This document shows, piece after piece, positions 56,784-60,171 of a stretch of DNA of 64,000 bases (positions within the stretch are counted from its first letter, which is position 1; every line of letters starts with the position of its first letter). The DNA is from a virus (lineage: Duplodnaviria; Caudoviricetes): positions 69,587 to 133,586 of IMG/VR virus record IMGVR_UViG_3300035520_001860; one strand, 5' to 3'. The notes under the pieces are model-generated. The model had not been told where the DNA came from. It saw only the letters and a program-made list of their open reading frames with translations, and made no database searches. The translations under genes were made by a program, and so were the position numbers.

Positions 56784-56844
56784 AGTACATATTATAAAGT
56801 ACCTAAGGTCATTCATATGACTTTAGGTACTTTTTGTGTGTATT
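56784..56844 (+). terminator. Attenuator-like terminator hairpin, copy 1
   Basis: aaagtacctaaggtcat-tcat-atgactttaggtacttt followed by T-rich sequence; homologous to 60109-60171. Confidence 0.8.
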
Positions 56845-56882
56845 AAAAATTATAGGATTTTTAATGAAAGGACAGTGAGTAT

Positions 56883-56999
56883 ATGGAATCAGACTATGAT
56901 TATTGGTGGCAAATAACACTAAATAAAACTACATACGATGAAAATATTAGTTATTACATGCAAAAGTGTGCATATGATAGCTTATTAAAGTGCACTTAA
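56883..56999 (+). CDS. Second small Tyr/Trp-rich ORF
   Basis: GAAAGGA RBS; MESDYDYWWQITLNKTTYDENISYYMQKCAYDSLLKCT. Confidence 0.6.
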   Translation: MESDYDYWWQITLNKTTYDENISYYMQKCAYDSLLKCT

Positions 57000-57049
57000 A
57001 ATTAAGTAAAAACACTGAAAAATAATTTAAAACTTTTTGAAAAAATCTG

Positions 57050-57078
57050 TTGACAAAATAAAGTTTGTGAGATATAAT
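57050..57078 (+). promoter_or_regulatory. sigmaA promoter of the Tyr/Trp tRNA cluster
   Basis: TTGACA-17-TATAAT. Confidence 0.85.
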
Positions 57079-57123
57079 ATATTTGTAAGTAAGAGATAAG
57101 TAAATACAAGTATAAAAAAACAT

Positions 57124-57204
57124 GCGTCGGTGAGCGGAATTGGTATCGCAGCTGGCTGTAACCCAGTGGCTTATGCATTCCTGGTTCGAGTCCAGGGCGG
57201 CGCA
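57124..57204 (+). tRNA. tRNA-Tyr(GTA)
   Basis: ctggc-tGTAa-cccag region giving loop ctGTAac; extended variable arm; GGTTCGAGTCC; A73. Confidence 0.85.
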
Positions 57205-57249
57205 CTAGATATACATATTTTTAGTATTTTATACTTTTGTAATTTATAT

Positions 57250-57337
57250 TGGCAGGTATGCAAATGGCTGAAGCAAGCGGTCCGTAAAACCGTGACCTAT
57301 GTGGTAAACAATGTGGGTCCAAATCCCACCCTGTCAA
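57250..57337 (+). tRNA. tRNA-Tyr(GTA), atypical (C33, TCC T loop)
   Basis: tggcagg/cctgtca acceptor; gcggt-ccGTAaa-accgt; long variable arm; A73. Confidence 0.65.
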
Positions 57338-57343
57338 CTTTGT

Positions 57344-57414
57344 AGGTTCTTGGTGTAACGGTAGCACGGTCAGCTCCAACCTGACAGATGCGAGTTCGAC
57401 TCTTGCAGTTCCTG
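57344..57414 (+). tRNA. tRNA-Trp(CCA)
   Basis: gtcag-ctCCAac-ctgac; G73; two U.U mismatches in the acceptor stem. Confidence 0.85.
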
Positions 57415-57501
57415 TTAATTATGTACAAATTTTAGTTAATGTCATAGTATTAAGCAATCTTATAATTATATTAATTATAATTTATAAGAGAGGATAATAT
57501 T

Positions 57502-58764
57502 ATGGCATTTATTTATTGTATAAAACATAAAGAAACAGGAAGGGCATACATAGGTCAAACAGTACAACCATTTGAAAATAGAATAAAACAGCATTGTTGC
57601 GGAGAAACAGAAATAGACAAAGCTATAAAATATTTTGGTTTAGGTGCATTTGACTATTGGGTAGTAGAAGAATGCAAACCAGAGGAACTGGATGAAAAAG
57701 AAATATACTACATAGCAAAATATGATACATACTATAATGGATATAATAATACATTAGGTGGAAGGAAAGCAGGTCAAAATAAATATGATGATATAATAGA
57801 TAATATTAGAAAAGACTACATAAATGGAACATCTATGAGTGATTTAAACATAAAATACAAAATTTCAAACTACAGTATAAGATACTTTGTAAAGGATTTA
57901 CAAAGGCAAGAAGAAATAGAGATTAAACACACAAATGATGCTAAGATGGTAATAGGATATACGAAGGATTGGCAGAGAATAGGTATATTTGAATCAATAA
58001 AAGATGCATTAAGATTTGTAAACAATCAACGAGCAACTGAAAATAAACCAATAGTAGATGAAAGAAATTTTTATAGAACAATAAAAACAGCATGTGCAAA
58101 GAATGGTATAGCATCTGGATATAGATGGCAATATGCTGAAGATATATTTTATGATGGAAAACAATTCAACTCATCAATAGATAAACACAATTACATACAA
58201 GGTTTAAAGTGTAAGTGCATAGATAATATATGGTTCACAGTTAGAAATGATAATGTAAGAAAAAGTAGAAATATAATAGACCTAAACACAGTTAAATCAT
58301 TAGCAAACACTTATACAAATAGAGAGGTAGCAGAATTACTAGGTTTTAATGTTGGGTCCATAAATAGATTTGCTAGAAAATATAACATTATATTTAAGGA
58401 TGATGATAAAAAGATAAATGAAAATGCAATCAATAAAGATATATTTAACAAAATACAACTTGGATACACATATAAACAACTAGCAGACATATATGGAATT
58501 AGTCATGATGCAGTTAGAGTCAGATACAATAGATATTTAGCAAAGCATGGAATAATAAAAGAGGATAACAGAATAATAAATGGTGTAATATGTATAGAAA
58601 ATGGATTAGTTTTCAATTCATTAACAGAAGCAGCTAGATATTTAAAAAATGATACAGCATTAACAAACTATGATTTAAGGGGATGTGCCTATAAAATAAG
58701 CTTAGCAGCTAGAAATAATACTATATACAAAGGATACCATTGGAAACCAATAGATAAGCAATAA
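57502..58764 (+). CDS. GIY-YIG homing endonuclease with C-terminal NUMOD/HTH-like repeats
   Basis: FIYCIKHKETGRAYIGQT...RIKQH...EKEIYYI...GYN; FESIKDA and FNSLTEAA...GYHW motifs. Confidence 0.85.
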   Translation: MAFIYCIKHKETGRAYIGQTVQPFENRIKQHCCGETEIDKAIKYFGLGAFDYWVVEECKPEELDEKEIYYIAKYDTYYNGYNNTLGGRKAGQNKYDDIIDNIRKDYINGTSMSDLNIKYKISNYSIRYFVKDLQRQEEIEIKHTNDAKMVIGYTKDWQRIGIFESIKDALRFVNNQRATENKPIVDERNFYRTIKTACAKNGIASGYRWQYAEDIFYDGKQFNSSIDKHNYIQGLKCKCIDNIWFTVRNDNVRKSRNIIDLNTVKSLANTYTNREVAELLGFNVGSINRFARKYNIIFKDDDKKINENAINKDIFNKIQLGYTYKQLADIYGISHDAVRVRYNRYLAKHGIIKEDNRIINGVICIENGLVFNSLTEAARYLKNDTALTNYDLRGCAYKISLAARNNTIYKGYHWKPIDKQ

Positions 58765-58800
58765 AATTATAGGAAGTATTAAAATGATTGGGGAAAAATA

Positions 58801-59883
58801 ATGAAACAATTGCTAGATAAGTCATTCTTAGGAATGAGTAGACTTGAAAAAGATGAATTCTACAAGAACCAATTTGAATATTACAGAAAGTTTAATACTA
58901 GCATTGTAATTGTAGCAGTATTAGCTTCATTCTTTTACTTTATTTCAGATTGCCAGCTATTTGGGCGATTTGCTTATGAGACACTAGTACCAAGAATGTC
59001 AACAGTGATAGATTTGGTAGTATTCTTATTTATTAGAAAATATAATCATAGTTATAAAGTAGAAATGTTAGCATCACAGCTGATAGGACATTTAATAATG
59101 TGGCATACAATATGGGCTATTTATTATTTGCCTAACAGACAGTATTGTAGCGATGGATTCCTTATCATGCAGATAGTAATACTTATGCTTGGTTTTGCAT
59201 CATCATTTGGTTTAGCAGTAATTTCTCAGTTATTAATAATAGTAAACATATTAATCTCAAATATGTTTATACACTATGAAGATGTTGACTTAATGATATC
59301 ACTTGGATTACCATTAGCTATAGGAATAGCAATATCAAATTATATATTTACACAGTCTTACTATAATTTATACAAAACAACAAAAGAATTGGAAAAGCTG
59401 TCTTATTTAGATCAGCTTACAGGAGCATTTAATAGACATAAGATAAGTAAACTGATAGAAGATGATAAGTTTATAGTTCATACTAAAGATGATATTTCAA
59501 TTGTAATTTTAGATATAGACTTATTTAAAAAAGTAAATGATACTTATGGACATGATAAGGGAGACATAATATTAAAATACCTATCAAAGACATTAAAAGC
59601 AAGTACAACTGCTGATGATTTGGTAGTACGTTGGGGTGGAGAAGAGTTCTTACTTATATTATTTGGATATGATGAAGAAAATGCAGCAAGGCTTGCAAAT
59701 AATATAAGAGAAACAGTAGAATTTGGAAATAACGGAATAAGTAATATAACAATATCATTAGGAATTTGTCAATACAAAGATAGCTATATAGGAACAGTAA
59801 AGAAAGCAGATATGGCTCTATATTATGCAAAAGAACATGGTAGAAACAAAGCTATTAGATATAGTGATATTGAAGAAGCATAG
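58801..59883 (+). CDS. Membrane-bound diguanylate cyclase (GGDEF)
   Basis: Multiple TMs; DQLTGAFNR, DIDLFKKVNDTYGHDKGD, RWGGEEF, ADMALYYAKEHGRN. Confidence 0.92.
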   Translation: MKQLLDKSFLGMSRLEKDEFYKNQFEYYRKFNTSIVIVAVLASFFYFISDCQLFGRFAYETLVPRMSTVIDLVVFLFIRKYNHSYKVEMLASQLIGHLIMWHTIWAIYYLPNRQYCSDGFLIMQIVILMLGFASSFGLAVISQLLIIVNILISNMFIHYEDVDLMISLGLPLAIGIAISNYIFTQSYYNLYKTTKELEKLSYLDQLTGAFNRHKISKLIEDDKFIVHTKDDISIVILDIDLFKKVNDTYGHDKGDIILKYLSKTLKASTTADDLVVRWGGEEFLLILFGYDEENAARLANNIRETVEFGNNGISNITISLGICQYKDSYIGTVKKADMALYYAKEHGRNKAIRYSDIEEA

Positions 59884-59907
59884 AGTATAAAAAATAAAAC
59901 AATACTA

Positions 59908-59936
59908 TTGACAAATGGTTTAATATGAGTTATAAT
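59908..59936 (+). promoter_or_regulatory. sigmaA promoter driving the leader peptide
   Basis: TTGACA-17-TATAAT. Confidence 0.85.
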
Positions 59937-59969
59937 ATTTATATAAAAATGAAAGGAAAACTAGGTCAA

Positions 59970-60086
59970 ATGAATCAATTAGCTAGAACATTTGAATTTG
60001 ATATTGAACATTTTGAAGTCCATGATGAAGTCATTATGGATTCTTTGTCGTTCAATAGAATAATTCATGTTACAGCTAATACTTAA
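59970..60086 (+). CDS. Putative F/E/D/I/H/V-rich leader peptide
   Basis: GAAAGGA RBS; MNQLARTFEFDIEHFEVHDEVIMDSLSFNRIIHVTANT. Confidence 0.75.
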   Translation: MNQLARTFEFDIEHFEVHDEVIMDSLSFNRIIHVTANT

Positions 60087-60108
60087 ATAAACTTAGATAA
60101 TTTATATT

Positions 60109-60171
60109 AGTGCATATTATAAAGCACCTAAGGCTTATGGAAGTGAGCTTTAGGTGCTTTTTATGTGCATT
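60109..60171 (+). terminator. Attenuator-like terminator hairpin, copy 2
   Basis: aaagcacctaaggcttat-ggaa-gtgagctttaggtgcttt followed by T-rich sequence; compensatory changes versus copy 1. Confidence 0.8.

Follow-up and report, generated by a model that had tools for sequence, protein, structure and literature searches.

Leader-peptide attenuators such as trpL, hisL, pheL, thrL, ilvL and pheM of pheST consist of a short open reading frame (ORF) with a ribosome-binding site and a run of codons matched to the product, the ORF being contained in a hairpin and followed by a terminator; multivalent leaders are known too (thrL and ilvL). T-box riboswitches of Firmicutes sense tRNA status to control the read-through of a terminator. 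Phage tRNA genes are usually seen as codon-usage helpers that are expressed passively, or as spare copies kept against host defences that cut tRNAs, and a full-text literature search found no paper describing leader ORFs or attenuators ahead of them. Here we analyse two related hairpins, W1 and W2, each placed between two small ORFs ahead of a tRNA cluster in a 64-kb stretch of DNA (hereafter the window), which is the final part of the 133.6-kb IMG/VR virus record IMGVR_UViG_3300035520_001860 (Duplodnaviria; Caudoviricetes). Judging from sequence features, the hairpins are probably (with a probability of about 0.7) Rho-independent (intrinsic) terminator-type stem-loops, which would act within a leader-ORF cassette located before phage tRNA clusters, as its stop or attenuation element.

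Both hairpins were found where an earlier note on this DNA had placed them, with the sequence frame that it quoted (Table 1). They are 86 % identical over ~65 nt and their flanks are unrelated. As + strand RNA, each folds into a 10-bp lower helix, a 3×2 internal loop, a 16–17-bp upper helix and a 4-nt loop, followed by a U-run, with folding energies of −32.8 and −38.6 kcal/mol for W1 and W2, respectively (z about −8), and no other 70-nt stretch on the + strand of the whole record folds as stably. The − strand folds only to about −20 kcal/mol, so that the + strand is ~13–18 kcal/mol better, because several conserved G·U pairs turn into C·A. The paired differences between the copies that the earlier note had named are all real, namely those at alignment columns 21:52 (U-A/C-G), 30:43 and 31:42 (UC/GA versus CU/AG) and the outer pair 8:64 (A-U/G-C); in addition, 32:41 is altered on both sides and 13:59 reads U·G or U-A. 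Each copy is 100 % paired, and among the 26 pairs five differ on both sides, one differs on one side and none is broken. A 19-nt core occurs twice in the window, as compared with 0.05 occurrences expected by chance, and a covariance model built from W1 and W2 detected no third + strand copy anywhere in the 133.6-kb record. In agreement with the claim that the hairpin stands only before these two tRNA clusters, the other tRNA region of the window (30.5–32.4 kb) contains neither a copy nor a comparable cassette.

Homologues were reached through the GGDEF protein encoded between W1 and W2, which led to a 268-kb relative (G001, 68 % protein identity), on which the covariance model from W1 and W2 was then run and identified three hairpin copies. 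A degenerate DNA pattern recovered the G001 phage again in three metagenome contigs and yielded as new finds a third phage with three copies (L045), one further copy (L042) and L047, a contig binned into a Lachnospiraceae metagenome-assembled genome (MAG) from deer cecum. The family thus amounts to 10 distinct copies, distributed over five uncultured phages from gut or cecum that are related to one another. A strict core pattern gave no match in IMG/VR beyond the record itself, the 216-aa upstream protein used as bait found no relatives, and the alignment of the F leader (the small ORF upstream of W2) recovered only G001 again. G002, a distant relative of 332 kb whose GGDEF protein is 35 % identical, contained no hairpin copy and carries its tRNAs in one mixed array. 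A loose palindrome matched 21 other loci in IMG/VR, which were rejected as family members and taken as unrelated terminators, since they scored ≤33 bits with the model, no better than noise, and lacked the lower helix.

In the alignment of the 10 copies, 96 % of the pair cells are paired and seven pairs are altered on both sides; at 26:47 the pair is A-U, G-C or U-A, depending on the copy. None of 500 shuffles reached the observed pairing or covariation score, a statistic that overstates independence because the copies are interrelated (ten copies from five related lineages are few, and they are akin to one another), and slid controls dropped to 29–55 % paired. The selection on RNA structure that had been proposed from W1 and W2 is thus borne out well beyond these two copies. 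Inspection of the flanks showed that all the homologues lie between small ORFs, with a tRNA cluster downstream wherever the sequence continues; they thus did not turn out to be generic terminators without a link to small ORFs or tRNA clusters, which would have contradicted the earlier interpretation. The copies cluster by position (types A, B and C) and not by genome, and therefore the duplication is older than the divergence of these phages, with each paralogue retained ever since. Type A copies stand ahead of Tyr/Tyr/Trp tRNAs, while types B and C stand ahead of Asp/His/Glu/Phe/Ile(/Val) tRNAs.

W1 and W2 are direct repeats around a 3.3-kb segment that includes a GIY-YIG gene, and the window lacks a unit made of the F2 leader and hairpin C that G001 and L045 carry, as if it had been lost or gained by recombination between hairpin copies. 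Both observations would suit an element acting at the DNA level, such as a site for recombination or for the shuffling of cassettes, or else a target connected with the GIY-YIG endonuclease gene between the copies. However, the conserved G·U pairs give the hairpin a strand specificity that points to RNA, its position is fixed relative to stop codons and ribosome-binding sites, integron-type core sites are absent, and copies B and C of G001 have no endonuclease gene between them. We consider a role of this kind highly improbable.

The family shares with intrinsic terminators of the A-tract/U-tract extended-stem form a G-C-containing stem followed by a U-run, 17–28 nt past a stop codon, and an A-tract that pairs with the first Us. 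Over the 10 copies, the whole hairpin folds with −23 to −39 kcal/mol, the upper helix has 16–17 bp with 5–6 G-C pairs, and a U-tract, UUUUU(R)U(R)U, lies directly 3′ of the stem (10/10 copies). An upper helix and a U-run after a coding-strand stop codon are standard intrinsic-terminator anatomy and, regarded as a terminator, the hairpin belongs to a known kind; W1 and copy B of G001 were called by a simple terminator scan. Of the 52 paired columns half vary, while the U-run (columns 54–58), its A partners and the internal loop are almost invariant. Since the stem covaries freely and the U-run does not, the latter appears to be needed as Us, a pattern that argues for a terminator U-tract rather than a mere helix.

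Several features distinguish the family from other intrinsic terminators. It adds a 10-bp lower helix beyond the 3×2 loop, with a 3′ arm past the expected release site; ~60 nt are conserved among paralogues and across phages; and the hairpin always lies within a unit of small ORF, hairpin and small ORF. The lower helix is 93 % paired, with a compensating change at 9:63 (C-G to U-A) and with 8:64 present as GC, GU or AU. Such compatible and compensating changes, together with a downstream ORF that requires read-through RNA, would also be in agreement with a processing or stabilizing element, in which the full 26-bp stem of a longer transcript is cut by RNase III or blocks 3′ exonucleases, so that the leader mRNA is set apart from the downstream ORF or tRNA precursor and the stability of each relative to the other is controlled. 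A helix of ~26 bp in two coaxial parts with a 3×2 internal loop is in the size class of phage RNase III sites, and the T7 R1.1-type hairpins and the early-RNA sites of the Bacillus phage SP82 are likewise repeated, related long hairpins with an internal loop and compensating changes, located between small early genes. In contrast to these hairpins, the W1/W2 family carries a terminator-like U-run, and its invariance right after a GC-containing stem is not explained by processing alone. Moreover, two type B copies persist despite a decayed lower helix, and sister cassettes (described below) use ordinary terminators, one of them with almost no lower helix, so that we regard processing as a rather improbable function of the hairpin.

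The layout around the hairpin is invariant. In all copies, the hairpin is preceded on the coding strand by a small ORF with a good ribosome-binding site. Another small ORF, likewise provided with a ribosome-binding site, begins 15–40 nt past the hairpin, leaving no room for a sigma-70-type promoter between the two. Beyond this second ORF come an A/T-rich stretch and a TTGACA-17-TATAAT promoter of consensus or near-consensus sequence, and the tRNA cluster starts 250–450 nt past the hairpin in every copy with downstream sequence. The upstream ORFs, designated the Y, F and F2 leaders, have 31–41 codons and GGAG/AAGGA ribosome-binding sites, and orthologues of the Y leader are kept in G001, L045 (with a TTG start) and L047. 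The leader ORFs, including the Y leader, sit within conserved long hairpins, a trait shared with classical attenuators. Regarding the downstream ORFs, ORF D is kept along its full length in G001 and L045, while the protein of ORF W is conserved over its first 9 codons only, in four lineages. A weak promoter over the 3′ arm of the hairpin (TTNAGG, 16 nt, TAAAAN) was considered and dropped, its −10 element being poor or inconsistent in most copies. The 3′ part of ORF W (56940–56995) contains an island, GTTATTACATGCAA..GCAT.TGATAGCTTATTAAAGTGC, that is kept at the nucleotide level in four lineages despite indels that shift the frame, which suggests that it acts as RNA or DNA and not as protein; the island holds motifs resembling the hairpin arms (GTGCAT and AAAGTGCAC).

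Table 1. Features of the two tRNA cassettes and of the segment between them (positions in the 64-kb window)
Feature	Position	Strand	Details
Y leader, upstream small ORF (31 aa, ..NIYSYSYYYWY..)	56669–56764	+	Ribosome-binding site GAAAGGA; stop 18 nt before W1
Hairpin W1	56783–56845	+	Lower helix 56783–56792 with 56836–56845; upper helix 56796–56811 with 56818–56833; U-run 56831–56835
ORF W, downstream small ORF (MESDYDYWW...)	56883–56999	+	Ribosome-binding site; no sigma-70-type promoter fits between W1 and ORF W
Consensus promoter (TTGACA-17-TATAAT) of the first tRNA cluster	57050–57078	+	Conserved A/T-rich upstream element
tRNA-Tyr, tRNA-Tyr, tRNA-Trp	57124–57415	+	
GIY-YIG homing-endonuclease-like gene	57502–58764		Between the two tRNA cassettes; same place in L047
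Membrane-anchored GGDEF diguanylate cyclase	58801–59883		Between the two tRNA cassettes
Consensus promoter of a short transcript carrying the F leader	59908–59936	+	
F leader, upstream small ORF (38 aa, ..FEFDIEHFEVHDEVI..)	59970–60086	+	Stop 21 nt before W2
Hairpin W2	60108–60172	+	Lower helix 60108–60117 with 60163–60172; upper helix 60121–60136 with 60145–60160; U-run 60158–60162
ORF D, downstream small ORF (50 aa, acidic, MVECDFSSGDISSHDEH...)	60192–60344	+	Ribosome-binding site GAAAGGA 8 nt before ATG
Consensus promoter of the second tRNA cluster	60389–60417	+	
tRNA-Phe, 117-aa ORF, tRNA-His, -Asp, -Glu(ttc), -Glu(ctc), -Val, -Ile	60501–61613	+	

The amino acids of the ORFs flanking the hairpin match the tRNAs encoded downstream, both in the Tyr/Trp cassette and in the Phe/Glu/Asp/Ile/His(/Val) cassette. 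Across the six frames of the record, every other run of {F,D,H,E,V,I} is shorter than the 15-residue run FEFDIEHFEVHDEVI of the F leader, and YYYWY of the Y leader is tied for the longest Tyr/Trp run in the six frames, being the longest among the + frames. The phage of the window alone has a tRNA-Val, and it alone has Val in the F leader. When the + frames of G001 are considered, the leader runs YYYWYY, FEFDIEHFDIHDEHI, QQQMQCRRRMCQQRCRQM and TSTSSSTNNSSSSTNTNS are each the longest of the amino-acid set of their own cluster (the DHIFE run only ties), and QQQMQCRRRMCQQRCRQM and TSTSSSTNNSSSSTNTNS are by far the longest of their sets in its 268 kb. These last two belong to additional cassettes of G001. 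In the third cassette, the run QQQMQCRRRMCQQRCRQM precedes Cys, Cys, Gln, Arg, Arg, Met, Arg and Gln tRNAs, and the leader codons CAG/CAA and AGA/CGA/CGC fit the isoacceptors present, while in a further cassette TSTSSSTNNSSSSTNTNS precedes Asn, Thr, Ser, Thr, Ser and Ser tRNAs. Both cassettes have a terminator hairpin at the same place, which is unrelated in sequence to the W1/W2 family and in one case has almost no lower helix, suggesting that the hairpin has a generic role within the cassette; the W1/W2 family is the version common to the Tyr/Trp and Asp/His/Glu cassettes. For the same reason, the earlier suggestion that the hairpin could serve as a searchable marker for the whole cassette family stands for two of the four cassette types in this lineage and fails for the Cys/Gln/Arg/Met and Asn/Thr/Ser cassettes, which in G001 use unrelated hairpins.

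Two side observations concern these additional G001 cassettes. In the third one (locus L006, 14910–15070), pairing between the Shine–Dalgarno sequence of the leader (UAAGGAGU) and an anti-Shine–Dalgarno sequence ~10 nt past the stop places the entire leader ORF within a single long hairpin. At locus L061 (~253600–253850 of G001), upstream of the Asn/Thr/Ser leader, there is a consensus promoter with ~300 nt of sequence richer in G+C behind it, the end of which resembles the T-arm and acceptor of a tRNA (GGTTCGAATCCTGTCCTCTCGACT) and was not called by ARAGORN.

The order of the elements (cognate-rich leader ORF, hairpin, second small ORF, strong sigma-A-type promoter and tRNAs) suggests how the cassette might operate. 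The upper helix and the U-run would stop most transcripts coming from the leader. Termination would be incomplete or conditional, as the second ORF, with a ribosome-binding site and no promoter of its own, would need read-through RNA, and the lower helix would form only in this read-through RNA because its 3′ arm lies past the expected release point. Read-through might then be set by the speed of the ribosome on the cognate codons of the leader, that is, by leader-peptide attenuation. If so, a gut jumbo phage could gauge the decoding speed at the codons served by its downstream tRNA genes, using a ribosome-mediated attenuator to control whether transcription enters the second small ORF and the tRNAs. 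The lower helix might take part in a switch unlike the classical 1:2/2:3/3:4 design, together with a weak alternative helix between its 5′ arm and that of the upper helix. We put this complete scheme forward as speculative, and somewhat less tentatively the narrower proposal that the leader truly gates read-through of the hairpin. The cassettes suggest, and do not prove, control by tRNA sensing.

Several results weigh against attenuation. The segment after the cognate run paired with the 5′ half of the terminator no better than shuffles did, alignment folds of truncated transcripts contained no conserved antiterminator, and when own and foreign spacers were swapped the own spacer paired no better than those of the other types. 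An antiterminator candidate spanning the stop codon in G001 cassette 3 was likewise not better than shuffles. The alternative helix, formed by columns 3–9 with 20–27, is 93 % paired and shows double changes at 8:21 and 9:20 (in L042, the change at 9:20 is present though 9:63 is broken), and it is worth only about +1 to −4 kcal/mol. In addition, a consensus or near-consensus promoter with its A/T upstream element lies between every hairpin and its tRNA cluster, so that the clusters have their own promoter after the terminator and only the second small ORF depends on read-through; because this strong promoter separates the hairpin from the tRNAs, read-through would add little to tRNA output unless the promoter were shut off. 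Finally, a 10-bp lower helix pairing beyond the U-tract is unneeded for termination, and the coupling of ribosome and RNA polymerase is weak in Firmicutes, to which the inferred host belongs.

The consensus promoter just upstream of each tRNA cluster and the failure to find an antiterminator are, at the same time, what would be expected from a constitutive terminator or insulator, which would end the small-ORF transcripts and shield the tRNA promoter from upstream read-through while sensing nothing, the cognate-rich ORFs acting otherwise or being small proteins. Every terminator feature of the hairpin fits this explanation too, a promoter follows directly after hairpin B in L045, and the phage has other terminator-then-promoter junctions, such as 51101–51139 followed by a promoter at 51145. 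Nevertheless, a purely constitutive terminator leaves unexplained the four independent leaders spelled in the amino acids, and partly in the codons, of the tRNAs that follow, the presence after the hairpin of a promoterless second ORF with a ribosome-binding site, and a lower helix that needs read-through RNA and is kept by compensating changes, and we consider it unlikely that the hairpin does nothing else. As for the junction mentioned above, the terminator at 51089–51155 (AAAGTAACCTCAGCTAC...), with the consensus promoter directly following at 51145, scored a weak 25.5 bits with the hairpin model and may be a distant relative of the family or a convergent form.

With regard to leader-peptide attenuators, the phage cassette differs in that the matched product is a set of tRNA genes and not enzymes, in the second cognate-rich ORF after the terminator, in the strong promoter between the terminator and the tRNAs, and in its probable Firmicute host. 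The cassette may work like an attenuator of this class, and we do not file it as one because neither a conserved antiterminator nor a dependence of the controlled genes on read-through was found. If attenuation is the right interpretation, the cassette would resemble T-box riboswitches in sensing tRNA status, with the difference that it would do so through the translating ribosome and not by direct binding of tRNA; it has neither an Rfam T-box match nor a specifier or T-box architecture. Among curated Rfam families (T-box, known leaders and known phage RNAs), none reached its gathering score at 56.7–60.2 kb, and the only passes in the window were tRNAs and transfer-messenger RNA (tmRNA).

The occurrence of the same layout in four cassette types and five phage lineages suggests that phages might keep track of decoding capacity and tune expression in the neighbourhood of their tRNA clusters. 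In practical terms, the hairpin is a compact part of 65 nt with defined covariation, which can be moved into reporter constructs together with its leader. Even if it were only a constitutive terminator, it would still be a clean natural example of compensatory evolution in paralogous terminators.

The window has 32 % G+C, with nearly all genes on the + strand, and contains 15 tRNA genes and a tmRNA. Since the 133.6-kb record has an estimated completeness of only 59 %, it is a fragment of a jumbo phage. The host is probably a Firmicute, as inferred from the types of promoter and ribosome-binding site and from the location of L047 in a Lachnospiraceae MAG. GenBank phages searched by blastn with 56.3–60.6 kb gave merely short tRNA-like or AT-rich matches, and thus no cultured relative was identified. 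A search for public RNA runs containing this DNA listed none.

Other observations in the window concern its tRNA genes and neighbouring ORFs. ARAGORN called a tRNA with anticodon TTA at 61864–61938 (43.5 bits with the Rfam tRNA model), which would read the UAA stop, and the ORFs of the window appear intact under the standard code. Read-through of the leader stop by such a UAA-suppressor tRNA was considered and rejected, an in-frame TAG being located at the first bases of the hairpin in W1 and W2 but not in the relatives. Two further tRNA-like genes called by ARAGORN, at 30531–30607 and 31704–31777, have four-base anticodons (gcgc and tttc, respectively), and the second also passes the Rfam tRNA model. 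A 19-codon ORF with a ribosome-binding site (MKKRFSNSKDTESNFTKPR, 60452–60510) starts after the promoter of the second tRNA cluster and ends within the 5′ end of tRNA-Phe. A protein with a HipA-like kinase C-terminal domain is encoded at 54238–55062, in the operon ending at the Y leader. At the end of the window, the ORF starting at 63491 runs off the record at 64000, the C-terminal part of its product consisting of repeated NNMNMQNNMNGQYQ units; at the equivalent position, after a homologous phosphoesterase gene, G001 carries the Cys/Gln/Arg/Met leader cassette instead.

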